Source: an uncultured bacterium
GTDB lineage: Bacteria; Muiribacteriota; UBA6191; CAZXTJ01
Length of the DNA: 13,738 nt
NCBI GenBank assembly: GCA_964643655.1
Contig: CAZXTJ010000169.1
Span: forward strand, 1 to 13,738
Reading direction: 5' to 3'
The position numbers were made by a program, and so were the translations under genes. Shown piece by piece: positions 1 to 13,738 of the stretch. Each line of letters begins with the position of its first letter. Positions within the stretch are counted from its first letter, which is position 1. Below the pieces are notes generated by a model. The model worked only from the letters and a program-made list of their open reading frames with translations. It searched no databases and had not been told where the DNA came from.

Positions 1-1955
1 GCGCCATACTGCCCCAACCACATAAAAGGAACCAAATCACTGTCTATGCGATGAAAGATGAGGTAATACTTCAGCACTACCCAAGGCTGTAAAACTTCAT
101 ACCATTTGGTCAGTTCGTTGACTTTTAAAAGACGAGCAGAAAAGAGCAAGGGTGCCAATGCAGCAGCTTGTTTACCCTGTTGAACGAGATTGCGCTCCTT
201 CAATCGTCTCTCCATTTCCTTCCGTGCTTTTTGTCGGCTCTTGTGCAAACGAGCATTTTCTTGTGACCTAACATTGCGAAACTTCTCCATTCCATCGCGC
301 AAGGAATCTATTTCACCGGCAACAGAAGAGAGAGATTGGAGCAAAGAAACGTTTATTCCTTTAGTGAGACGTCTATTGTCCAAGACAGATAGTTTGGGTA
401 ACAAAGTCTCCAAACGCTCTTTTAATATCTCTACTATTTCAACACGACGTTCACCACCACCGCTCAATCTCGTTACGATGGTAATGGCATGGCAATCGAT
501 GGGCAGCTCGGCCAATTGGACGGACATTGAGTCGTCTTTGTTTCTTTTGGCTGCCAATCTTCTTTCGCCCACAGTCTTGGAGCTAATGAATACCTCTGCC
601 ATTCCTTCTGCATTGGCTTTCCAATGAAGACTCACATCCTTGCCTTCTCGATGTGTACGCGCCGCCAGAAGCTCCAATTTAAAGGCGGCTGTTTTGATGC
701 GCCTAGGCAAGGTCGTTGAGCCATCAGGGAAAACTATCTTCATAGCATAAGGTTGATTGTCAGCCAAACCATCTATGATGACCTCATGCTTTTTTGTTGG
801 CTCTTTTCCATTTTTCCCAGCATATGTGAGTGGTCTGACACCACCTTCCAACTGAACCCACGTTCGATAAGCTTGGTGGCTCTGCCAGCTTATGACCATT
901 CCACCGGGCCTAGAGTTAGTGGCCAACATGAAGACGTCATAGTCCTTTTCCTCTTCGCCTGTTTGGTTGGCGATGAAAACACCCAAAAGTACACCGAGCA
1001 AAATGATGATGGCCAAGAGACCGTAGGTCGACTGTGGACCCTCTTCAGGTGGTGGGAGGCTCTTGTTCACAGCTTCAGCGCTCGTTGAGGAATCCAATTC
1101 AGGAGGAATGGTCGAACGGGTGAAAGGAGTCTTTTTAGCTTCGAGCAATGAACAAAGGGCTTTGCCATCAGCGGGGCGCTTTGTCTGCTCTATTGAGCAG
1201 CACTGCTGCAATATTTCTGCAAATTCGCCAAATATTTCTTTCTTACAAACAATAGGGTTGCAGACACCTGAAGCCAAGGAGCGGATGAGCTGTTTCCCAC
1301 TCTGGCCCTCTCGTTCGAAAGGATGCAAACCCGTGGCTGCGTAATAGACGACCAAACCTGCTTGAAAGACATCTCCTGCAGCCGTGAAGTCTTCTCCTCG
1401 CAAAACCTCTGGTGGAGTAAAACGAAGAGTGCCCAAGACTGCACCTTCAGCAGTGAGCGGAGTCCAGTCGACTGGTCGAACGAGACCAAAGTCGACAAGT
1501 CGTATATTGCCATCTGGTTCCAAAAACACATTGTCAGGCGTTATGTCTCGATGGAGTATTCGCCCATCGTGAAGATAACGCAATGCATCAGCCAATCTGC
1601 AGAGCAGAGTTTTTACTGCTTTGGGTTTTAAGGGACCAGATTGAGGTATGACTTTGGACAATGGGGAACCACGAAGAAATTCCATAACGAAATATGGCGG
1701 CGATACATCCAAATCAGCCTGATAAATGTTGACCAACTGAGGATGACGAAGACCTGCCAAGACTGAGACTTCTCTATCCAATCGTGCTCGGGCTTCGGGA
1801 TTTTTTGCATAATGGTCGTGGAGAACCTTGATGGCCACATCTCTTTTGAGCTCATTGTCTTTCGCTCGATAAACGGTACCCATGCCCCCTGAACCAAGGC
1901 ATTGGTTAATGACATACCGGCTGCCATCGCCTACCTGAGGGAAATTCTCAGTCAC
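1..1955 (-). CDS. Hanks-type Ser/Thr protein kinase, single-pass membrane protein with a large extracytoplasmic domain. The GTG start is inside the window; the C-terminus runs off the window start, so the CDS is partial.
   Basis: Translating the minus strand by hand gives one uninterrupted frame from 1955 down to base 1 (about 651 codons, no stop). The ORF track omits it because it never reaches a stop in-window. N-terminus reads V/MTENFPQVGDGSRYVINQCLGSGGMGTVYRAKD. Kinase motifs seen: Gly-rich loop GSGGMG, VAIKVL, catalytic loop LHRDITPDN, VDFGLV, TPPEV. A transmembrane helix (LLAIIILLGVLLGVFIA) is encoded around + coordinates 960-1015. Beyond it lie a beta-rich region and a charged coiled-coil-like region. 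A GTG at 1955..1953 directly follows an in-frame TGA. All + strand ORFs listed in 190..1631 are antisense artefacts of this gene. Confidence 0.88.
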   Translation of the reverse strand, partial: MTENFPQVGDGSRYVINQCLGSGGMGTVYRAKDNELKRDVAIKVLHDHYAKNPEARARLDREVSVLAGLRHPQLVNIYQADLDVSPPYFVMEFLRGSPLSKVIPQSGPLKPKAVKTLLCRLADALRYLHDGRILHRDITPDNVFLEPDGNIRLVDFGLVRPVDWTPLTAEGAVLGTLRFTPPEVLRGEDFTAAGDVFQAGLVVYYAATGLHPFEREGQSGKQLIRSLASGVCNPIVCKKEIFGEFAEILQQCCSIEQTKRPADGKALCSLLEAKKTPFTRSTIPPELDSSTSAEAVNKSLPPPEEGPQSTYGLLAIIILLGVLLGVFIANQTGEEEKDYDVFMLATNSRPGGMVISWQSHQAYRTWVQLEGGVRPLTYAGKNGKEPTKKHEVIIDGLADNQPYAMKIVFPDGSTTLPRRIKTAAFKLELLAARTHREGKDVSLHWKANAEGMAEVFISSKTVGERRLAAKRNKDDSMSVQLAELPIDCHAITIVTRLSGGGERRVEIVEILKERLETLLPKLSVLDNRRLTKGINVSLLQSLSSVAGEIDSLRDGMEKFRNVRSQENARLHKSRQKARKEMERRLKERNLVQQGKQAAALAPLLFSARLLKVNELTKWYEVLQPWVVLKYYLIFHRIDSDLVPFMWLGQYG

Positions 1956-3849
1956 CCTTCAACATCCCGAGCTTCTCGAGTTTTTTATAGAGAGTCGTAC
2001 GGGACATACCAGTCTCTCGAGCTACTGCACGAAGTTTGCCCTGAGAGCGACGAAGAGCGCGTTCGAGGAACACTTTGTCAAAAGCTTCGCGTGCTTCTTC
2101 GTATTCAGGTGGCAACTCTTCTACAGCTAAAGCAGGACCAGCTGAATGGCTGACAAAGGAAGAGCTTCCGCCACCTGCAGCACCAATGGGTAAACTGGCT
2201 GCTGAAACGACTTTGCCTCTTTCGATGACAACGGCTCTTTCGATGGCATTGCGTAATTCGCGGATGTTACCAGGCCATGCATAGGTCTTCAGTGCCTTTT
2301 GCGCATCTTTGGAAAACTTTTTCAGTTTGCGACCAAATCGAGTGGCAAAGGTTTGCAGAAAGTGTTCGGCTAGGGGCACCACATCTGCACCTCGTTCGCG
2401 CAGCGGTCTCAATCTCAGTCTGAAGACATTGACGCGATAATAAAAATCTTGTCTGAAGGTGCCATCTTGCACCTGCCGTTCGAGATCGGCATTTGTAGCG
2501 CAAACCAACCTGATGTCCAGAGGGATGTCATCTTGGCCACCGAGGCGCCTAATCGTTCTCTCTTGAAGGACACGAAGCAATGTAACTTGAACGTCCAAAG
2601 GTAACTCACCAATCTCGTCCAAGAACAAAGTGCCACCAGAAGCAAGTTCGAAACGACCCAATCTCTTTTCCAAAGCACCAGTGAAGGCACCTTTTTCCGC
2701 ACCAAAAAGCTCTGCTTCTATGATGTCTCTAGGCAGAGCAGCACAGTTCACGGCAATGAATGGACCACTAGAGCGACTAGAACGCAAGTGCAATTCGCGA
2801 GCAACCATCTCTTTGCCTGTGCCTGTTTCACCTGTGATTAGCACAGTAATGTCTTGTGCAGCTGCAGCGTCAATGTGTTCGATGAGTTCTTTTGAAGCAG
2901 GACCATCACCTGTGACGAATACATTGCTGTCATTTTCCAAACGCCTCATGGCAGCAATTGTTGTCGTAGCTTCTACCAGTTGGCGTCTTGTCTGTTGGGC
3001 CGCAACGAGCTCTGCAGCGAGGCCAGTCACAACCTCGAAGAATGGCTGCTGTTCTTCAGTCCATGGCCTATCGGTACGTTTTTTATCGAGATAGATGACA
3101 CCAACTGCACGTTGATTGGCCAACAAAGGCGCACATAATATGGCGCGCGGCATGGTGGAAACGGCTAGGCTAGGAGCACCTGCACAACGAGAATCTCGCA
3201 GAGAATCTGCAATTGCCAAAACTTCTTTTTCTTCTAGAGCGTTGGCACAGACAGTCTTTGATATTGCCTCGCACTCTTCACCGTCGACCAATCCACGAGC
3301 AGCAACTCGTACCAAAGTATGGCGCTGTCCTTCCAAGAGGACAAAACCTCGCTCTGCGTCTACAAAATCGATGAGTCCATCTAGAAGACGCTCGAGAACC
3401 TCCTGCGGTTTTGAAGAGGAACGCAGCCCGTCAATAAAAGCTGAGAAGGGCTGCCAATCAGTGGACTTTTTCCCGCCACTGTTCAACTGAATATCTATGG
3501 CGCTTTCGGCAGTGATCTTTTTGGCACGAAGAGCATTGGCCGAAGCCAAAGGGCTGTCGCTCATTTGTATTTGCAAGTCGTCGATGACAACGACATCCCC
3601 TAAGTGAAGAGCGGCATCTCTCACTTTTTCGCCATTGAGATAGGTACCCATGGAGCTCTTGAGGTCGCGAATATGATATTTGCCACCTACCTGGTAGATC
3701 TCGGTATGTCGGCGAGAAACACGTGTACCAAAGAGCATGACGTCGCAGTCGTCGCCCTTGCCCAAAACAGTACTTGCTGAAGTGAGCTTAACAGCGTTAA
3801 AAAAACGTTTCGGTGAATCTGTCGTCCCAATGAGGAGCCACCAAACCAC
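1948..3849 (-). CDS. Sigma-54-dependent transcriptional activator (enhancer-binding protein) with N-terminal FHA domain, central GAF domain, AAA+ sigma-54 interaction domain and C-terminal Fis-type HTH
   Basis: 633-aa ORF. FHA hallmarks are present: VSRRHTEI (SxxH) and TYLNGEKV (NG). GAF-like region spans about residues 150-300. AAA+ motifs: Walker A GETGTGKE, GAFTGA motif (EKGAFTGA), Walker B LFLDEIGEL. C-terminal HTH: RAVARETGMSRTTLYKKL. The GTG start at 3849 has AAGGAA 6-11 nt upstream. Its stop overlaps the downstream kinase start (GTGACTGA). Confidence 0.92.
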   Translation of the reverse strand: MVWWLLIGTTDSPKRFFNAVKLTSASTVLGKGDDCDVMLFGTRVSRRHTEIYQVGGKYHIRDLKSSMGTYLNGEKVRDAALHLGDVVVIDDLQIQMSDSPLASANALRAKKITAESAIDIQLNSGGKKSTDWQPFSAFIDGLRSSSKPQEVLERLLDGLIDFVDAERGFVLLEGQRHTLVRVAARGLVDGEECEAISKTVCANALEEKEVLAIADSLRDSRCAGAPSLAVSTMPRAILCAPLLANQRAVGVIYLDKKRTDRPWTEEQQPFFEVVTGLAAELVAAQQTRRQLVEATTTIAAMRRLENDSNVFVTGDGPASKELIEHIDAAAAQDITVLITGETGTGKEMVARELHLRSSRSSGPFIAVNCAALPRDIIEAELFGAEKGAFTGALEKRLGRFELASGGTLFLDEIGELPLDVQVTLLRVLQERTIRRLGGQDDIPLDIRLVCATNADLERQVQDGTFRQDFYYRVNVFRLRLRPLRERGADVVPLAEHFLQTFATRFGRKLKKFSKDAQKALKTYAWPGNIRELRNAIERAVVIERGKVVSAASLPIGAAGGGSSSFVSHSAGPALAVEELPPEYEEAREAFDKVFLERALRRSQGKLRAVARETGMSRTTLYKKLEKLGMLKGD

Positions 3850-4943: not shown

Positions 4944-7478
4944 TTATTCACCACTCTCTTCTTGCTCTTTTTCCTCTTCAGTCAAGGCTTTCAGCCCTTC
5001 AGCCAAAGGACCAGTGCCTGCTATCATTTTGCTCAATGCATCCATACCTCCTCGGCCCAAGAGCAAACCAAGGCCTCCTGTGGCTTGAGGAAGATGTTCG
5101 GCCAGTTTTCCTGCCAAAGCTTGATTTCCATGCGTTTTTATCGCTGCCACGAGGTCTGGTTGTATGGCTTCGAAACGTTTCACGAAAGCCTCTGCTTGAG
5201 CACCGAGTTCCTGTAATCGCAGCACCATTTGAGCTTCCTCGAACTGTATCTGTTGGTCTCTCGCGCTCTTTTGTCGGGCTAATTCAGCTTTTGTAATTTC
5301 GTCTCTCGTTGTCTGAGAAGCCAGACGACCGCTGAGCTCAGTCTCTGTTTCCCGTGACTGAGCATTGATTTTGGCCAAATCGATACCCAATTGCAGATTC
5401 ACCTCTTCTTGTTGCAATAAGAGCTCTTTTTCTTTGGTGGCTGCTCTTGCCTGGGCAAGTTCTTGGCGAATGCGTTCCTCTTCACGAACCGTTTCCAATT
5501 CTTTTCGTGCCATAGCCAAACGGAGGGACTGTTCCACTGAATCCTTCTGACTAGAACGAACCATCTCTGCGATGGCTGAGTCGCCAATCTCCAATTTGCC
5601 AAACTCAACGTCATAAACACGCATGCCATTTTCTGGGAACAATCGACCTGGACGTTTACCTTCGACAGTTTCTCCCAAGATTGCATTTCTCAAGATATCG
5701 ATGTAATTCGTGTAAAACTCCTGAACGCCATACTTTTTCACTACATTGGCCACGAGTGATCGTGTGTGATCTGTGAGGAATTTCACGTAATTCTCTACAT
5801 CGAACCATTTGCTCTTGTCCCCTTCGAAGTCAACTCGGAAAGAGAGTGGTATTCGCACTGAGACAAAGTCTCCAGTTTCCGCAGCAATCAAATCAGAGAC
5901 CTTGTTTGCTTTGACACGCAGATAAACATCTTTTCGCAATTGATAGTCAGACTTTGGAGTTCCTGTTGATAGCTCGATGACCTCTGGTAACTCGTCATAT
6001 TGCAACAACACTGTCTGTGGTCCTTCAATAACTCTGCTTTCACCAGTTTTTGAAACAACTTTGATGGCATAGCCCGTATGTACTCGCACAGTAACGGCAC
6101 CATCATATTTTGTTTTCAGCTGTATGGAACGAGGTGGGACGTATTCGTTGGAACGAGTGAACTCGTCAGCCGTCAATTCGGGCTCTTCACCACTTCCAGT
6201 TTCATCGTTATTGAGTAAATTGATGCCTTTTTTGCTTCTTGCTTTCCTGGCAGTAGGATTGAAGATTCCTTCCAATCCCAAAAGGGAGAGATTGTGTGAA
6301 ACTGCCTCTTCATTACCGGGATAAAGTAACTCGACGATGGGGATGGGCAGAGTCCGTCTGACGATGACTTCATATCTGGGATCAGGCAAGTACATTTTGG
6401 GACCCAAGACCAACTTTACGTCACCAGTCTCCTTGGAGAGCACATAACGGGCTTCTCCTTTGGGTATTGCCACAGCCTGCTGTAGCAGCTGGTCACCACC
6501 ATATTTGATGATTGCATGTTCAGGACGTGGATAATATATTTTCTGGTCTTTTCCCGTAATGAAGAGCTCTTCACCCTCAGCATATTTTTTGCCATCTTCC
6601 TCATAGGGTTTGATCACTTTTACATACAAACCACGGTGTGTCTCGAGCTCAATGGCCTTTATCTTCCTCTCACCTTTGTGAGTTTCATGGAAAGACTGAG
6701 TTGGCCGAGGAAAAACGACGGCTGGTCCATTGACATACTCTTTGGTACCATTCTCGTCTATGAGAATACAGGTTTCCAGCTGTTCGAGAGTGACGGCGTC
6801 GCGTACATATTTACCACACTCAGGAACGACTTCCATTCCCGTAGGTGGAATGTAAAAAGAAACCTCTGTGCCTTTCACAACGAGAAGCTGACCTGTAACC
6901 AAATCTGGTGTGGAAGCATCGGGGAAAATTTCACCCTTGTTTTCATCTGTAATCTCTTCAGTAGAATTGGTCTGTTTTTTGAGGACTGCATTCTTCCAAT
7001 TTGATTTGGCCACTTCACCATTAATGACGCGAACGACTAAATATTGGTTAGAGCGGAGAATGTGGCCATCTAGGCAAGTGGCTGATTGACCTGGGTAAAG
7101 AGCAAAAGTTGCGGGACCTGGTATATTGACTCTTCGCCCCATTGCCAGTTCCACAGAGCCCTGTTTTCCTCTTGATGGGTGGCGATGTTCGTCTTCTTCA
7201 ACAGGATTTTGTAAAACGATATATTGCCCCTCTTTTGCTGCAGGCCACATTGTTACTGCTGATTTGAGGAGGCAACGTTGGAATGATTGAGTTTTGCTAT
7301 CAAAACGAACTGGATTGTCTGTCTCACCAATACTCGTCTTTGTTGGTCCTACGTGCACTTCCACAGTACCATCGGCGCCATTTTGCACGAGGGCTTGTTC
7401 TCCTTGAGCCAGAACGAGATCGCCGCCTCGCTCTCTCATTTCGCGAATATCCCTGTCATACTCTCTGTTGCTTCCCAT
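4944..7478 (-). CDS. mvp: Major vault protein (MVP) homolog: vault shell protein with N-terminal vault repeat domains, a shoulder (SPFH-like) domain and a C-terminal cap-helix coiled coil
   Basis: The maximal ORF is 4944..7505 (853 aa), which begins with TTG. An ATG at 7478 preceded by GAGAGGA (about 8 nt) is the more likely start. The product aligns by eye along its full length to eukaryotic MVP. N-terminus: [39 protein letters not shown] against human [30 protein letters not shown]. Repeated vault-repeat-like units of about 55 residues follow. Shoulder: [42 protein letters not shown] against [62 protein letters not shown] against [20 protein letters not shown]. A long Q/E/A/R-rich cap-helix follows. 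C-terminus: [19 protein letters not shown]...[11 protein letters not shown] against [20 protein letters not shown]...FGLLGMGPEG. Acidic C-terminal tail. Confidence 0.85.
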   Translation of the reverse strand: [844 protein letters not shown]

Positions 7479-7526
7479 TTTGTTGTCCTCTCTCGGTGCT
7501 GCCAATATTGTCTTTTCTTGTTCATA

Positions 7527-8815: not shown

Positions 8816-10768
8816 TTAGTCGGCCATGTAAGTTTTCAGTAGCGGAGTCAATCGATCATATTCTGATTCTAAGACAGAAAGCGTTTCTGGAGCGCCATCC
8901 AAACATCGGTGTCGCCCCATATCACATAAACGACTGGCCATATCCCCTACTCCGTGGGCACCAATATATCCTGCTGCACCTTTGAGTGAATGAGCCGCTT
9001 CATGCATCTCGTCAACATTGGCCCGCCCCACAGCAATTCTCAACCTCTCTATTCTCTGAGGAGCATCAGAGAGAAATGTGCTAATGAGACGATGAAGCAA
9101 TGAACGATTGCCATTGACATGACGTAGGGCTTCTTCAGAATCAAATGGAACTGAGACTCGTTTTTTACAAGATGTAGTCTCAATCTTAGCCTTTTCTGAG
9201 TTTTCCTCGCCTGGTCCTGCAGCCTCTTCAGTGGCAATGATGAGCTCTTTGGCAATGACAGGTTTGTTGAGAATGGAGTCGGCTCCAGCTGCAATAATTG
9301 ATTCTCTGCGGCGCATATCTGTATTGGCCGTTACGGCAATGATGGGCGTATAACGACTCATGGTAGATTCCAGCTCACGCATTCTCAGAGTCGTTTGTAC
9401 ACCATCGAGAACAGGCATGGAAAGATCCATCAAAATGATATCAAAAACTTCTCTTTTAAAGAGATAGAGAGCTTCTGCTCCATTCTCGACGACAGAGACC
9501 TGATGGCCACGAGCATTCAAAATCTCAAAGGCAAACTCACTATTGACTGGATGATCTTCAGCAATGAGAACTTTGAGCGGACGATGACACTCTTTTTCCA
9601 CTTGGCCTGTGACCAAAACCACATCTTCCATTTTTGGTGGATGATCCAATACTTGCTCAAAGGTTGTAATCAACTCCATACCTATGATTGGACCAATGAG
9701 AAGATGAATGTGGTCCAGTCTCAAAAGAGCATCCATGATTTCCATAGCTTTTTCTGGACAGAGGGAAATTATCAAAGGTAAGCCAGGTGAGATTCGGCGT
9801 ATCTCGTTGACCATATCACGGATATTTTTCGCATGGATACCAACGCCATCAATATAAGCTGCACCATATTGCTGTCCTTCCACTTTGCTACATGCCAATA
9901 AAGTTTTTACCTCTCGCAATGAACCCACAAAAGTTGATGTTGCCCCGCGGAAGACGAGAAGTTCATCAATCCATTGGCGATGGGATGCACAGTGCGAGAC
10001 TATCATGGTTTTATGACCAACGAGAGAGTTGCGTTCAACCACTTCTCCGTAGTTATTTTCAAACTGAGTCAGTCTTATCTCATATCGCAAGTCATGCTCT
10101 CTTGCAGAAAAACCTGTTGGGACCTTTGCAAACAAGGGTGACGAGATTGGCAGAGCAAAATCACTGATCAGACGAGCTCCATTGTCATCACATTGAACAC
10201 TGAACAATATCTCTATTTCTTTGGCGCTCTCTAGGTGCATGATTGTGGATATTGCCTTTTTTAGCTCTCCTGCCAGGTTTGGTGCACTCACAGTCACATT
10301 TGTGGCCGTTGGAGAAGAAAAACTTGGACGCAAAATTTTTCCATGTTCACAGCCATCAGGTGCCAAGGACCAGATGACCTGCCCCACGAGACTATCCAAT
10401 CTTTGCGGCGCACAAGAATAATCCATTGTAGAAAGAAGAGCTTGCGATAGATTTGTCATGGCTTTGGAGAAGATGCGAGACTCCCAAAGAATGTCTCTGT
10501 TGATAGCTCCTTGAGCAAGTTTTGTCATTGTCAGCAGTGCAGACTTCGTTTCAACGTCCAAACCCTTCCTCTTTTTATCATGTCTCTTCTTCTTTGCATG
10601 AGTTACAAAAAACTTACTCCTCTTGAAAAATGCCACTGCCGTGGCTATGGCACAGCAGGTCATAGAAAGGGCAAATGGTGAATTGTAGAGTGCTATGGCG
10701 AAAGCCACGAGGGAAATTGTCATGAGCAACATGCGCTCGAGTTTTGTGCTCTCACGAGAGATTGTCAT
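8816..10768 (-). CDS. Membrane protein with receiver (REC) and C-terminal histidine phosphotransfer (HPt) domains. The N-terminal and central region has no recognisable histidine-kinase H-box or ATP-binding boxes. Putative phosphorelay intermediate.
   Basis: 650-aa ORF. AAAGGAG lies 5 nt upstream of the ATG at 10768. Two N-terminal hydrophobic segments: MLLMTISLVAFAIALY and ALSMTCCAIATAVAFF. Intact REC at about residues 398-510: KVLIAEDH...ILMDLSMP...AVTAN...LNKP. HPt at about residues 545-640 with HSLKGAAGYIGA. Residues 240-390 look like a degenerate pseudo-receiver. The gene ends 4 nt from the convergent flavoprotein gene. Confidence 0.75.
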   Translation of the reverse strand: MTISRESTKLERMLLMTISLVAFAIALYNSPFALSMTCCAIATAVAFFKRSKFFVTHAKKKRHDKKRKGLDVETKSALLTMTKLAQGAINRDILWESRIFSKAMTNLSQALLSTMDYSCAPQRLDSLVGQVIWSLAPDGCEHGKILRPSFSSPTATNVTVSAPNLAGELKKAISTIMHLESAKEIEILFSVQCDDNGARLISDFALPISSPLFAKVPTGFSAREHDLRYEIRLTQFENNYGEVVERNSLVGHKTMIVSHCASHRQWIDELLVFRGATSTFVGSLREVKTLLACSKVEGQQYGAAYIDGVGIHAKNIRDMVNEIRRISPGLPLIISLCPEKAMEIMDALLRLDHIHLLIGPIIGMELITTFEQVLDHPPKMEDVVLVTGQVEKECHRPLKVLIAEDHPVNSEFAFEILNARGHQVSVVENGAEALYLFKREVFDIILMDLSMPVLDGVQTTLRMRELESTMSRYTPIIAVTANTDMRRRESIIAAGADSILNKPVIAKELIIATEEAAGPGEENSEKAKIETTSCKKRVSVPFDSEEALRHVNGNRSLLHRLISTFLSDAPQRIERLRIAVGRANVDEMHEAAHSLKGAAGYIGAHGVGDMASRLCDMGRHRCLDGAPETLSVLESEYDRLTPLLKTYMAD

Positions 10769-10802: not shown

Positions 10803-10818
10803 TGCAATCTCTCTGCCA
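10803..10818 (-). promoter_or_regulatory. Sigma-54 (-24/-12) promoter candidate for the membrane REC-HPt gene (8816..10768), divergent from the one above
   Basis: The minus strand reads TGGCAgagagaTTGCA: GG and GC have correct spacing and the -12 TTGCA is perfect. The predicted TSS is about 24 nt upstream of the ATG at 10768, with a AAAGGAG RBS in between. Confidence 0.55.
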
Positions 10819-10874
10819 CAGGTGAATGTGCCTCTCTAGAACGAAAGCCCTTTCCAAAGGCAATAGATGAGGCT

Positions 10875-10905
10875 TTTCACTATGGCAATGTGAAACAAGT
10901 GTCAC
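10875..10905. promoter_or_regulatory. Inverted-repeat cluster between the two divergent sigma-54 promoters: candidate enhancer (UAS) for an EBP
   Basis: TTTCAC-tatggcaat-GTGAAA (10875..10895) overlaps GTGAaacaagtgTCAC (10890..10905). There are also two GGCAAT copies. A T-rich tract (10906..10925, possible bend or IHF site) follows, toward the + strand promoter. Confidence 0.4.
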
Positions 10906-10929: not shown

Positions 10930-10947
10930 TTGCGCATTTTGCGCATT
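10930..10947 (+). repeat. Perfect tandem direct repeat TTGCGCATT x2, abutting and overlapping the first base of the -24 element
   Basis: TTGCGCATTTTGCGCATT is visible directly. Each copy contains the palindrome TGCGCA. The last T is T1 of TGGCAC. Confidence 0.5.
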
Positions 10948-10962
10948 GGCACGAAGCATGCA
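10947..10962 (+). promoter_or_regulatory. Sigma-54 (-24/-12) promoter candidate for the response-regulator/pseudo-HK operon
   Basis: TGGCACGaagcaTGCA: the -24 element TGGCACG is perfect, and GC is at the exact -12 spacing (aTGCA against TTGCA). It lies about 46 nt upstream of the ATG at 11008, leaving room for a 5' UTR of about 35 nt with a GAGGAGG RBS. Confidence 0.6.
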
Positions 10963-11007: not shown

Positions 11008-11604
11008 ATGAAAATATTGATAGCCGATGATGATGCCATGTCCCGCCAACTGCTCAGTGGTTTGGTCACTGAGTGGGGTCACGAACCAGTTACGGCCGAA
11101 AATGGTGAAGAAGCTTGGCAAATTCTGACTGAGCAAAAGCTGCAGTTCATCATCGTAGATTGGATGATGCCCCGCCTAACGGGAGTAAATCTCTGTGAAA
11201 GAATACGAGCAAGTGAACTTGATCAATATATCTACATCATTCTTCTCACTTCACGAAAAGATGCAGATGAAATCGTGACCGGTCTCAATGCAGGTGCAGA
11301 TGATTATGTGACAAAACCCTTTGATGCTCGGGAGCTGGAAGTGCGCCTCAATGTTGGTATTCGTGTACTCGATTTGGAGCGCAGATTAGAGGAAAGAGCT
11401 CGCCAAGCAGAGGAACAGCTTCAGCAGATCAACAAGCTGGAAAGCCTCATTCCAATTTGCTGTGAATGTCGACAAGTGCGCGATGACAAGAATTACTGGC
11501 ACAAAGTAGAAACTTATCTAGCAAAACGCACACCAGCAAAATTCACACACACCTTGTGTCCTCATTGCTACAACAAAGCTATGGCCGAGATTGAAGCAGC
11601 TTAA
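11008..11604 (+). CDS. Response regulator: canonical receiver domain, then a coiled-coil linker and a C-terminal Cys/His-rich zinc-ribbon-like domain
   Basis: 198-aa ORF. RBS GAGGAGGAAG lies just upstream. REC residues: ADDD, IIVDWMMP (phospho-Asp), LLTS, VTKPF. C-terminus: IPICCECRQVRDDKNYWHKVETYLAKRTPAKFTHTLCPHCY (C-C-x-C ... C-P-H-C). The stop TAA overlaps the next gene's ATG (TAATG). Confidence 0.85.
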   Translation: MKILIADDDAMSRQLLSGLVTEWGHEPVTAENGEEAWQILTEQKLQFIIVDWMMPRLTGVNLCERIRASELDQYIYIILLTSRKDADEIVTGLNAGADDYVTKPFDARELEVRLNVGIRVLDLERRLEERARQAEEQLQQINKLESLIPICCECRQVRDDKNYWHKVETYLAKRTPAKFTHTLCPHCYNKAMAEIEAA

Positions 11605-13738
11605 TGAAAAAAAGGTCTATTCATAGGTGGTTGGACGAAGTAGCTCGCTCTGGAGACACAAAATCCTGTTTGGCAGTTCTAAAAGAACTAGTCAACTCAC
11701 TACCTGACTACTTCGAACACAGCAAGGAGACTGCTGTCAGACTCATCCATGATGACCAAAATATAGAAACACAAAAATTTTGCAACACAAAATCCAAACT
11801 GCAGTTTCCCATTTGTGATGGAAACAAAGTACGAGGTTCTTTGGAAGTCTGCTATCTTCAAGACTTTCCTCTGGCCGACGAAGGTCCCTTTAGAGAAGAA
11901 GAAATTGAGATAGTAAAAACAGCTGCCCGCATTGCTGGTTTTGCCTTAGAACGTTGTCGAATGTTTGCAGAAAGACATCAACTGAAGGCTTCCGCAAAGG
12001 GTTATGCCCACACGAGTGGTCAAGTCATTGCTGCACTTCGTTATCAAATGAGAGCTCCCCTCAATGGCATCTTGGGTTTTGCAGAAATGCTTCTTGAAGA
12101 TCAGCTCACTCAAGAGCAAAGAGATGCTGTCAATGCCATTCAATCTGGTGCCGACTCCGTCCTCGACATAACAGATTCGATTTTGGATTATGCTCGTCTC
12201 GATGCTGATGAATTGGAACTGGACAAGAAAGAATTCTCTCTTTCTGCCTTAGTGAATGGGCTCACAGCTTCAATCGAAAAACGAACAGGTCGTTTGATTG
12301 ATATCAAAAGTGAGCTGCCACCCAAACTGAGTTCAGTTATCGGTGATAGCAGACGCTTGCGGGAGGCTCTGGAGAGCTTGGTTTCTTATTGCGCTTCATT
12401 GGATGTGGAAAACACAACAAAAGCCAACATCTACGTTGAACAAACTGACGATACTCTTGACCTCAACATGGAGGTCTATGGTCCACATGTAATTCACTCT
12501 TCCCTTTCTGAAGAGCAATTGTTCAATCCCTTCGAAGGAAAAGCGGAGTATGACATTCCAGAGAAGGCTGCCTTGGAATTGGCCATTGCACGTGGTTTGT
12601 CACGACAAATGAATGGCGATCTCATTCTGGACAAAGTGGATGACAAGGTCATTTTTCGCCTTTTCGCAAGATTACCACGACCTTCAGCCGAAGAAAATGC
12701 TGGGGCAAATCATGCACCTGACGCATCATTAAAAATACTCGTTGCAGATGACAGTAAAGTCATTAGGGTCTTGGCCTCGAAGATATTGACGGGTCTGGGC
12801 CATCAAGTTGATTTGGCTGAAGATGGTGCTCAAGCCCTTGCCAAAGGTGCTGAAGACAAACACGATCTCATTTTGATGGATCTGAACATGCCCAACATGT
12901 CAGGTTTTGAAGCTACGAGAGCCCTGCGAGAGAAAAAAATCAAAACACCCATAGTCTCAATCTCATCTTCTGCTCTGGCAGAGGATAGACGTCAAAGCTT
13001 GGAAAGCGGCATGAGTGGTTTTGTCACTAAACCATTCAAACGTAACGATCTTCGTGCCGTCCTTTCCGAACACTGTGGTGTTCAGTCTCAAGCAGATAAA
13101 AAAGAAGAACCACTCAAAGTACTCATCATCGATGATGACAAAGTCATGCGAAAACTAGTGCGTATGGTCGTGAAAAGAACCTATCCCAATGCTGTTGTCA
13201 AAACTGCAGATGATGGATTGGAAGCTTGTGCACTCTTGGGTAGCTTCTTACCTCGATTAGTCATTACCGACATCATCATTCCTGGTGTAGATGGTGTTGC
13301 TGTAGTCCGCTTCATCAATGAACGAGAACGGTACAAAAACACAGCTGTCGTCGCCATGAGTTCCCTTGGAGTCGATGATGATAGAGTGAGAACTCTCAGA
13401 AGACTGGGTGCAAAACAAATACTACCTAAACCCTTTGAGTGGAATGTCTTTTCACAGGCTGTCAGTGCTGCACTGAATGATGATTCTCTTTCAGCAGATA
13501 CCTTGGAAACAGAGAAACCCAAAATTGTCCCCATGCCCATTCCCTTTGACGCAGGCACAACAGAAGTACCCATTTGGGACATCAACAAAGGATTACGCTC
13601 TGCCGGCGGTTGTTCTAGTCTCTTGAGTTCAGTCGTTGGTGTATTTCTCGATGATGTTCGAGTACGTTTTGATGCCCTCGTTGATGGTATGGAGCAAGAG
13701 GACCTTTCCTGTGTACAAATGCAATCACACACCTTAAA
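11604..13738 (+). CDS. Hybrid sensor histidine kinase-like protein with a degenerate (probably catalytically dead) kinase core, two receiver domains and a C-terminal HPt domain. Partial: the 3' end runs off the window.
   Basis: A hand-translated open frame runs from the ATG at 11604 (overlapping the response-regulator stop) to the window end, with no stop. The ORF track omits it. N-terminal 130 aa are GAF/PAS-like. The HisKA-like helix reads AALRYQMRAPLNGILGFAEMLLED. The Tyr codon at 12042..12044 sits where the phospho-His of the SHELRTPL motif belongs. HATPase_c-like region: IGDSRRLREALESLVSYCASL (N-box Asn replaced), G1 box EVYGPH, G2 box AALELA in place of GxGLGL. REC1 at about 12732..13080 (KILVADD...LILMDLNMP...TKPF). 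REC2 at about 13117..13450 (KVLIIDDD...LVITDIIIPGVDG...LPKPF). HPt begins near 13560 and ends at the window edge inside the QSHTLK motif. Confidence 0.8.
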   Translation, partial: MKKRSIHRWLDEVARSGDTKSCLAVLKELVNSLPDYFEHSKETAVRLIHDDQNIETQKFCNTKSKLQFPICDGNKVRGSLEVCYLQDFPLADEGPFREEEIEIVKTAARIAGFALERCRMFAERHQLKASAKGYAHTSGQVIAALRYQMRAPLNGILGFAEMLLEDQLTQEQRDAVNAIQSGADSVLDITDSILDYARLDADELELDKKEFSLSALVNGLTASIEKRTGRLIDIKSELPPKLSSVIGDSRRLREALESLVSYCASLDVENTTKANIYVEQTDDTLDLNMEVYGPHVIHSSLSEEQLFNPFEGKAEYDIPEKAALELAIARGLSRQMNGDLILDKVDDKVIFRLFARLPRPSAEENAGANHAPDASLKILVADDSKVIRVLASKILTGLGHQVDLAEDGAQALAKGAEDKHDLILMDLNMPNMSGFEATRALREKKIKTPIVSISSSALAEDRRQSLESGMSGFVTKPFKRNDLRAVLSEHCGVQSQADKKEEPLKVLIIDDDKVMRKLVRMVVKRTYPNAVVKTADDGLEACALLGSFLPRLVITDIIIPGVDGVAVVRFINERERYKNTAVVAMSSLGVDDDRVRTLRRLGAKQILPKPFEWNVFSQAVSAALNDDSLSADTLETEKPKIVPMPIPFDAGTTEVPIWDINKGLRSAGGCSSLLSSVVGVFLDDVRVRFDALVDGMEQEDLSCVQMQSHTL

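Follow-up and report, generated by a model that had tools for sequence, protein, structure and literature searches.

A predicted hybrid pseudo-histidine kinase with tyrosine at the phospho-acceptor position and an intact REC-REC-HPt module

Results

The 13,738-nucleotide contig CAZXTJ010000169.1 from an uncultured Muiribacteriota bacterium, analyzed over its whole length and called the window here, ends inside a gene for a protein that resembles a hybrid histidine kinase. Collins and Childers, as given in PMC12632262, apply the term pseudo-histidine kinase (pseudo-HK) to a histidine kinase (HK) homologue that lacks one or more HK functions. At the level of sequence the window protein is such a pseudo-HK, because it retains HK homology and has lost both the autophosphorylation site and the ATP-binding residues. 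Its transmitter is predicted to be dead as a kinase and as a phosphatase, and we consider it moderately probable that the protein is a dead scaffold whose REC and HPt modules would take phosphate from another kinase and pass it on, acting as a relay, a branch point or a sink. A preliminary description of the same DNA had proposed a pseudo-kinase scaffold or a phosphate sink/relay, and the motif losses, the intact REC-REC-HPt module and the retention of both in an orthologue lend support to that proposal.

The transmitter has lost the residues of a competent kinase

The reading frame starts with the ATG at 11604, which overlaps the TAA of the preceding gene (TAATG), and stays open for 711 codons, up to the final base of the window. 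The domains of the encoded protein are listed below.

11604..13738, forward strand: pseudo-HK open reading frame, comprising an N-terminal module, DHp, CA-like domain, REC1, REC2 and the start of HPt; truncated by the window end
11661..11975, forward strand: N-terminal module of about 100 residues (20-124), small alpha/beta, GAF-like, including PLADEGPF
12015..12203, forward strand: DHp (HisKA) helical hairpin, residues 138-200
12042..12044, forward strand: TAT codon, encoding Tyr147 where the phospho-acceptor His is expected, flanked by Gln148 (canonically Glu) and Ala151 (canonically Thr)
12228..12677, forward strand: CA-like domain, residues 209-358, predicted Bergerat-type fold, with the N, G1, G2 and G3 boxes replaced
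12729..13064, forward strand: REC1, residues 376-487, with D382, D383, D426, S454 and K476 intact
13113..13463, forward strand: REC2, residues 504-620, with D510, D511, D556, S587 and K609 intact
13608..13738, forward strand: N-terminal part of HPt, including His709 (13728-13730) in QSHTL

Four independent alignments matched Tyr147 to the phospho-acceptor His: a phmmer comparison with the solved kinases ShkA, GacS and RetS; the alignment of the 229 nearest homologues to a family hidden Markov model (HMM); a MAFFT alignment of 25 sequences; and BLASTP against the genuine hybrid kinase of an orthologous contig. All four were concordant on the replacements in the H-box and in the N, G1 and G2 boxes. 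The preliminary description had placed a Tyr in the phospho-acceptor position at this codon and had reported replacement of the N-box Asn and of the G1 and G2 motifs; both observations hold, and losses in the ExxT and G3 motifs can now be added to them. A misregistered alignment was considered as an explanation and rejected, with hmmscan, phmmer, the family HMM, MAFFT and BLASTP all in agreement.

Transmitter motifs, canonical form and form in the pseudo-HK:
H-box: SHEIRTP; RYQMRAP
N-box: LxNLxGNAxKFT; LESLVSYCASLD
G1: V.DTGIGI; VYGPHVIH
G2: GGTGLGLAI; --AALELAI
G3: G.GS.F; DK-VIF

HisKA kinases need the HExxT sequence for transmitter phosphatase activity (PMC5992135, PMC12963549). In the pseudo-HK the ExxT phosphatase motif of the H-box is lost through the change of HEIRT to YQMRA (E to Q and T to A). 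The F-box, LFNPF, is retained. Each of the replaced positions is close to invariant among the 229 homologues.

Number of the 229 homologues that retain each canonical residue:
H-box His: 227
Glu following the H-box His: 226
ExxT Thr: 223
First N-box Asn: 220
Second N-box Asn: 223
Each G2 Gly: 228

Within this alignment the whole set of replacements is limited to the pseudo-HK and a single orthologue, P0001, and the remaining deviations are single changes or alignment slips.

With the Mg-binding Asn, the G1 Asp that binds adenine, and the glycines of G1, G2 and G3 all replaced, the pseudo-HK should neither bind nor use ATP. The combined loss of the ATP site, the His and ExxT would exclude autokinase activity, a phosphodonor role for the DHp domain and canonical transmitter phosphatase activity. 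The protein lacks what marks a competent HisKA kinase, namely the H-box His, the N, G1 and G2 boxes together with a HATPase_c score above threshold, and the E/DxxT/N phosphatase motif. It does possess the DHp hairpin and, as a predicted fold, the Bergerat-type CA domain that define the HK superfamily.

A Pfam scan gave the same picture. The preliminary description had named comparison with the Pfam HisKA and HATPase_c models as a check, and HisKA passes, with 54.7 bits over residues 139-201 against a cut-off of 26.9, while HATPase_c at 14.8 bits (residues 247-345) is below its cut-off of 26.4. P0001 also falls under the HATPase_c threshold. The scan further recovered two Response_reg domains and a weak GAF tail close to the N-terminus. 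The best NCBIfam matches were BarA, TorS, RcsC and ArcB, all far under their cut-offs. A search for hydrophobic segments found none outside REC2 (maximum KD19 1.83, at residue 541), so the protein is predicted to be soluble; membrane anchoring was rejected, there being no transmembrane-like segment.

Two side observations concern the former nucleotide pocket and the N-terminal module. Tyr262 and Cys263 (12387-12392) and His295 (12486-12488) stand where the Mg-binding Asn, the residue beside it and one of the G1 glycines would be, and all three are conserved in P0001. The N-terminal module matched no Pfam family, and neither did its canonical relatives, in which the motif reads PPxWQYPEITCARI...EVCYLEE.P..DEGPFLKEE. 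The module is repeated 5-13 times in giant kinases of 1200-3600 residues (P0130, P0176, P0182 and others), and the Cys of PEITCAR is lost from the copy in the pseudo-HK.

The receivers and the HPt domain keep their catalytic residues

Mapped by CheY numbering, the catalytic sets of both receivers are intact (D382/D383/D426/S454/K476 in REC1 and D510/D511/D556/S587/K609 in REC2), with Ser at the conserved Thr position in each. The Asp/Thr/Lys triads of the preliminary description are therefore right for Asp and Lys in both domains, and its "Thr" is actually Ser. The HPt His motif that it reported at the window edge is present as His709 in QSHTL. That description had also called for adjacent sequence with which to complete the HPt domain. 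Within the source genome the only other contig of this locus, L001, is shorter, and we used the orthologue P0001, encoded on contig L002. P0001 has 770 residues and a full C-terminal HPt (Hpt, 46.7 bits), in which QSHTL continues as KGSAAAIGA and completes the HxxKG motif; in the window itself the domain is still partial. The elements of a phosphorelay module are thus all in place: the acidic pair, phospho-Asp, Ser/Thr and Lys of the receivers and, seen through P0001, the HxxKG of HPt.

The substitutions are conserved in a single divergent orthologue

A word-indexed search of about 5.8 billion proteins returned one orthologue, P0001, with 68% identity. When 1.84 billion representatives were scanned in full by HMMER with a profile of the N-terminal, DHp and CA regions, the same lone orthologue came up at 760 bits, and the next match, at 207 bits, was an ordinary kinase. 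A scan of GTDB genomes produced generic hybrid kinases only, 28-30% identical. P0001 retains RYQMRAP, SYCAS, GPH and LELA. Its contig is syntenic with the window locus, with the conserved order Ser/Thr kinase, FHA-GAF-sigma54 activator, two small open reading frames, vault-like protein, nitroreductase, FMN reductase, a membrane-anchored REC-HPt protein on the opposite strand (TM-REC-HPt), a receiver with a Cys-rich tail (REC+Cys) and the pseudo-HK gene.

Synonymous differences between the pseudo-HK gene and that of P0001 are saturated (proportion of synonymous differences, pS, about 0.78), and we report the non-synonymous proportion (pN) against pS in place of dN/dS for that reason.

pN against P0001:
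DHp: 0.20
CA-like domain: 0.32
REC1: 0.15
REC2: 0.07

Amino-acid identity to P0001:
DHp helix a1: 96%
DHp helix a2: 90%
REC2: 89%, the most conserved domain
Former N-box helix: 86%
REC1: 78%
G2 helix: 76%
Former ATP lid, residues 311-321: 9%

This fine-scale pattern points to selection on the DHp surface and REC2, and not on the nucleotide pocket. The substituted motifs are themselves preserved through synonymous codon changes (R150, AGA/CGT; L153, CTC/TTG; S258, AGC/AGT; Y262, TAT/TAC). Because the same substitutions occur in an orthologue of 68% identity despite saturated synonymous sites, a selected, functional pseudo-kinase is indicated rather than decay. The independent, near-identical second assembly, L001, differs from the window by 6 mismatches in 12,052 nucleotides, with none in the pseudo-HK gene, which argues against an assembly error. 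Descent by duplication of the genuine hybrid kinase encoded nearby on L002 was rejected: at 28% identity that kinase is no nearer to the pseudo-HK than unrelated kinases are.

The predicted fold is that of a histidine kinase

We modelled residues 1-365 with AlphaFold2, using the 25-sequence alignment, and obtained a mean predicted local distance difference test score of 82.9. In the model a small alpha/beta domain at the N-terminus leads through a long helix to a DHp hairpin (138-164 and 170-200) and a Bergerat-type alpha/beta CA domain with a lid of low confidence. A Foldseek search against the PDB matched GacS, RetS, phytochrome kinase-like modules, HK853, DivL and ShkA. GacS, at a target-normalised TM-score of 0.62, and RetS, at 0.69-0.80, were the nearest solved structures, with identities of 24-26%. 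Together, the model and its matches suggest a true histidine-kinase homologue with a preserved predicted fold and a dismantled active site.

The locus carries sigma-54-type elements and a second kinase-less relay protein

The pseudo-HK gene is the second of an operon that diverges from the TM-REC-HPt gene. The features of this region and of the left part of the window are as follows.

1-1955, reverse strand: Hanks-type Ser/Thr kinase with GSGGMGTVY, HRDITPDN and DFG; runs off the left window end
1948..3849, reverse strand: FHA-GAF-sigma54 activator (enhancer-binding protein)
8816..10768, reverse strand: divergent membrane-anchored protein of 650 residues, with a hydrophobic segment at the N-terminus, a REC that is intact (D448) and an HPt
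10803..10818, reverse strand: sigma-54-type element TGGCAGAGAGATTGCA, upstream of the divergent TM-REC-HPt gene
10947..10962, forward strand: sigma-54-type -24/-12 element TGGCACGAAGCATGCA, 46 nucleotides upstream of the REC+Cys/pseudo-HK operon
11008..11604, forward strand: upstream gene, REC (D7, D8, D51, T81 and K103 intact) with a Cys-rich C-terminal tail, translationally coupled

Both elements in the window are one mismatch from TGGCAC-N5-TTGCW, properly oriented and 35-46 nucleotides 5' of their genes. The divergent intergenic region measures 239 bp. In the orthologous spacer the two elements are preserved, as is a central block, although synonymous divergence is saturated. The 22-kb orthologous locus (L002) contains three one-mismatch matches only, with 0.88 expected by chance:

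L002, 9201-9216, reverse strand: sigma-54-type element
L002, 9346-9361, forward strand: sigma-54-type element
L002, 16776-16791, forward strand: sigma-54-type element

The third of these lies 56 nucleotides 5' of the genuine hybrid kinase, which is encoded at L002 16847-19315 and whose architecture is PAS-PAS-HisKA-HATPase-REC without an HPt of its own. L002 also encodes a REC-HisKA-HATPase kinase at 19317-20459. The TM-REC-HPt protein is a second kinase-less relay protein; about 360-390 of its residues have no family match, and at 59% identity to its orthologue it is encoded by the block's least conserved gene. The FHA-GAF-sigma54 activator is a candidate regulator of the sigma-54-type promoters. 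Because this activator and Ser/Thr kinases sit in the same conserved block, co-regulation of the two-component genes of the locus through sigma-54-type promoters is plausible.

Several further observations were made on the neighbourhood. The central conserved block between the two sigma-54-type promoters (about 10846-10895, CCTTTCCAAAGGCAATAGATGAGGCTTTTCACTATGGCAATGTGA) may be an activator or IHF site. The tail of the REC+Cys protein (residues ~145-190, IPICCECRQVRDDKNYWHKVETYLAKRTPAKFTHTLCPHCY) is zinc-ribbon-like; it matched no significant Pfam family, the nearest being DUF7685 at E=0.53. The Hanks-type kinase is predicted to have a membrane segment, its C-terminal region is long, and its start overlaps the end of the activator gene; in the orthologous contig three such kinases surround the locus. 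An 853-residue homologue of the eukaryotic major vault protein is encoded at 4944-7505 on the reverse strand (MVP_shoulder, 78.6 bits, with Vault_2 and Vault_3 repeats). It has more than 6000 relatives at E<=1e-20 across many bacterial phyla, named "major vault protein" by JGI and "SPFH domain-containing" by NCBI.

Discussion

A proposed role as docking scaffold and phosphate relay

In the reading we prefer, the DHp/CA-like core would dimerise and offer a scaffold on which either a receiver domain or a genuine kinase's DHp could dock. The surface of the DHp four-helix bundle is under the strongest constraint in the pseudo-HK. REC2 and/or REC1 would accept phosphoryl groups from the His~P of a partner kinase or from an HPt, with REC2 the likelier acceptor because of its conservation, and the C-terminal HPt could then hand phosphate to a terminal regulator or drain it back. 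The protein would in this respect resemble RetS and RcsD, though with a more thoroughly disabled core. Expression would come from the conserved sigma-54-type promoter, divergently shared with the second kinase-less REC-HPt protein. Candidate partners are the REC+Cys protein, the divergent TM-REC-HPt protein and the PAS-PAS-HisKA-HATPase-REC and REC-HisKA-HATPase kinases of L002. From these features we infer that the core would act in docking, which way phosphate would flow and which proteins might be the partners.

Several points weigh against this proposal. It draws on sequence and predicted fold, and its partners are candidates. The genuine hybrid kinase is seen in the orthologue contig only, some 4.5 kb downstream and past two Ser/Thr kinase genes, and at 28% identity it is no nearer to the pseudo-HK than other kinases are. 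The HPt is incomplete within the window itself. With two family members only, conservation of Tyr as such is not separable from conservation of any non-His residue. Finally, intact motifs are no proof of phosphate flux, because the receiver Asp of PsmA is dispensable (PMC12963549).

Other explanations have to be weighed against the same evidence. The pseudo-HK could be a reverse sensor of the DivL type, in which the dead core would bind a phosphorylated single-domain regulator (for example, the REC+Cys protein) and produce a conformational signal, with Tyr147 aiding recognition of the phospho-Asp. The 90-96% conservation of the DHp helices, the intact upstream REC gene that overlaps the pseudo-HK start codon and the appearance of DivL among the homologues are all consistent with such a role. 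However, DivL has neither REC nor HPt and signals through N-terminal PAS domains, and it is a weaker match than RetS and GacS (Foldseek rank 39; 38.7 versus 66-72 bits). Three intact phospho-sites follow the core of the pseudo-HK, and REC2 is its most conserved domain, which argues for real phosphotransfer. We therefore think a DivL-type role, which leaves the conservation of REC-REC-HPt unexplained, rather unlikely, and note that it and a scaffold with relay function are not mutually exclusive. It is improbable, in our judgement, that the protein is a purely structural pseudo-enzyme acting through protein-protein interactions alone, with idle REC and HPt phospho-sites. PsmA provides the precedent, being a hybrid pseudo-kinase without the His, the ATP motifs or D/ExxT whose receiver Asp is not required (PMC12963549). 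PsmA has no HPt, whereas the pseudo-HK does, and the five catalytic residues of both receivers and the HxxKG of HPt have been kept between synonymously saturated orthologues.

Residual kinase activity would need a different acceptor, either His136, 11 residues before Tyr147, or Tyr147 itself, and a non-canonical nucleotide site. His136 is invariant in both orthologues, and DivL Y550H can regain autophosphorylation under DivK~P stimulation, so that cores that look dead are not always fully dead. The Mg-binding Asn, the Asp and glycines of G1 and all of the G2 and G3 glycines are nevertheless replaced, the lid is unconstrained (9% identity) and HATPase_c is sub-threshold; His136 itself lies opposite a non-conserved Arg/Ala in homologues and in a low-confidence segment of the model. 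These features make an active kinase very improbable. A decaying pseudogene, or an assembly or sequencing artefact, might be suspected of a family with just two members, both from metagenome assemblies, but seems scarcely credible: the reading frame is intact over 711 codons in the window and 770 in the orthologue, the identical substitutions persist at 68% identity with pS at 0.78 and pN at 0.20 (DHp) and 0.32 (CA-like), the second assembly is identical across the gene, and the intergenic promoter motifs are conserved.

We also considered elaborations in which the substituted residues have acquired functions of their own. Tyr147, which lies on the conserved DHp surface, might be phosphorylated by one of the eukaryotic-like (Hanks-type) Ser/Thr/Tyr kinases next to the locus in the two genomes and so gate docking or the passage of phosphate through REC-REC-HPt, or Tyr262, Cys263 and His295 might form a ligand or metal site in the former ATP pocket; we regard these as highly improbable. 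Were Tyr147 phosphorylated in this way, the same Hanks-type kinases could also drive the FHA-GAF-sigma54 activator of the operon promoters.

Comparison with known pseudo-histidine kinases

The principle of the pseudo-histidine kinase is already established. The preliminary description overstated the case in calling such proteins rarely documented, as DivL, RetS, RcsD and PsmA illustrate. HisKA domains without the His amount to 0.9% (722/76,471; PMC12632262), and the His is absent from the H-box in 2 of the 229 homologues of our sample. The pseudo-HK falls outside the RetS, DivL, RcsD and PsmA families: features that define them, such as membrane sensors, PAS arrays, a preserved HExxT or the lack of an HPt, do not apply to it, and its identity to them is at most 26%.

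RetS and GacS are the best PDB sequence matches of the DHp/CA-like region (66 and 72 bits, respectively). RetS, a hybrid sensor kinase of Pseudomonas aeruginosa, has a degenerate HATPase without G-boxes and cannot autophosphorylate, its REC2 takes phosphate from the His~P of GacS as a phosphate sink, and its core binds and blocks GacS (PMC5992135). The pseudo-HK shares the degenerate HATPase and the tandem REC domains. In contrast, RetS keeps HExxT and uses it as a transmitter phosphatase, whereas H, E and T are all replaced in the pseudo-HK; RetS also keeps the Mg-binding Asn and the G1 Asp, and the pseudo-HK has neither. RetS sits in the membrane, has a 7TMR-DISMED2 sensor in the periplasm and lacks an HPt, while the pseudo-HK is predicted to be soluble, with a small N-terminal module and an HPt. 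Because identity is only 24-26%, the pseudo-HK is not a RetS orthologue.

DivL of Caulobacter crescentus carries Tyr550 at the phospho-acceptor site, has no kinase or phosphatase activity and docks a phospho-regulator through its DHp (PMC4211667). It thus shares with the pseudo-HK a Tyr at the H-box position. DivL differs in its multi-PAS N-terminus, its lack of REC and HPt, its weak binding of an ATP analogue and its place in the alphaproteobacterial CckA-ChpT-CtrA circuit; no PAS domain was matched by Pfam in the pseudo-HK. PsmA of Streptomyces is hybrid and HK-like and lacks the ATP motifs, D/ExxT and the H-box His, a position that varies and is Tyr in S. scabies; no autokinase activity was detected (PMC12963549). 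It has PAS domains, a disordered linker of ~700 residues, a single REC with a dispensable Asp, no HPt and DivIVA binding, whereas the pseudo-HK has a compact REC-REC-HPt arrangement with conserved phospho-sites.

RcsD (YojN), from the enterobacterial Rcs phosphorelay, does not autophosphorylate, and phosphate from another kinase's receiver passes through its HPt to the terminal regulator (PMC5651002). It shares with the pseudo-HK a C-terminal HPt and a kinase-like core that lacks a canonical active site. RcsD sits in the inner membrane and has a periplasmic domain and an ABL domain in place of functional receivers, while the pseudo-HK is predicted to be soluble and has two intact RECs ahead of its HPt; we found no specific sequence relationship between the two. 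The unorthodox kinases BarA/GacS, ArcB, TorS and EvgS have the same transmitter-REC-HPt order, but they are active, membrane-bound autokinases with one REC, and the pseudo-HK combines an apparently dead transmitter with an extra REC in a soluble protein.

What is new is the combination, in which the predicted loss of all three transmitter activities is joined, in a soluble protein, to a fully intact REC-REC-HPt relay. With a two-member family and a principle already known, the practical impact is limited. If the proposal is true, this would be the transmitter with the most complete loss of function yet seen in combination with an intact REC-REC-HPt relay, and one with a near-invariant DHp surface. 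The locus brings together Ser/Thr kinases, an FHA-GAF-sigma54 activator, sigma-54-type promoters and a pair of kinase-less REC-HPt proteins, which hints that Hanks-type kinase and His-Asp signalling may be linked. The pseudo-HK would offer a natural test case for hybrid-kinase cores kept purely as docking scaffolds, with receivers and HPt as sinks or branch points in multikinase networks, and a scaffold that also relays would extend what RetS and RcsD each show in part.

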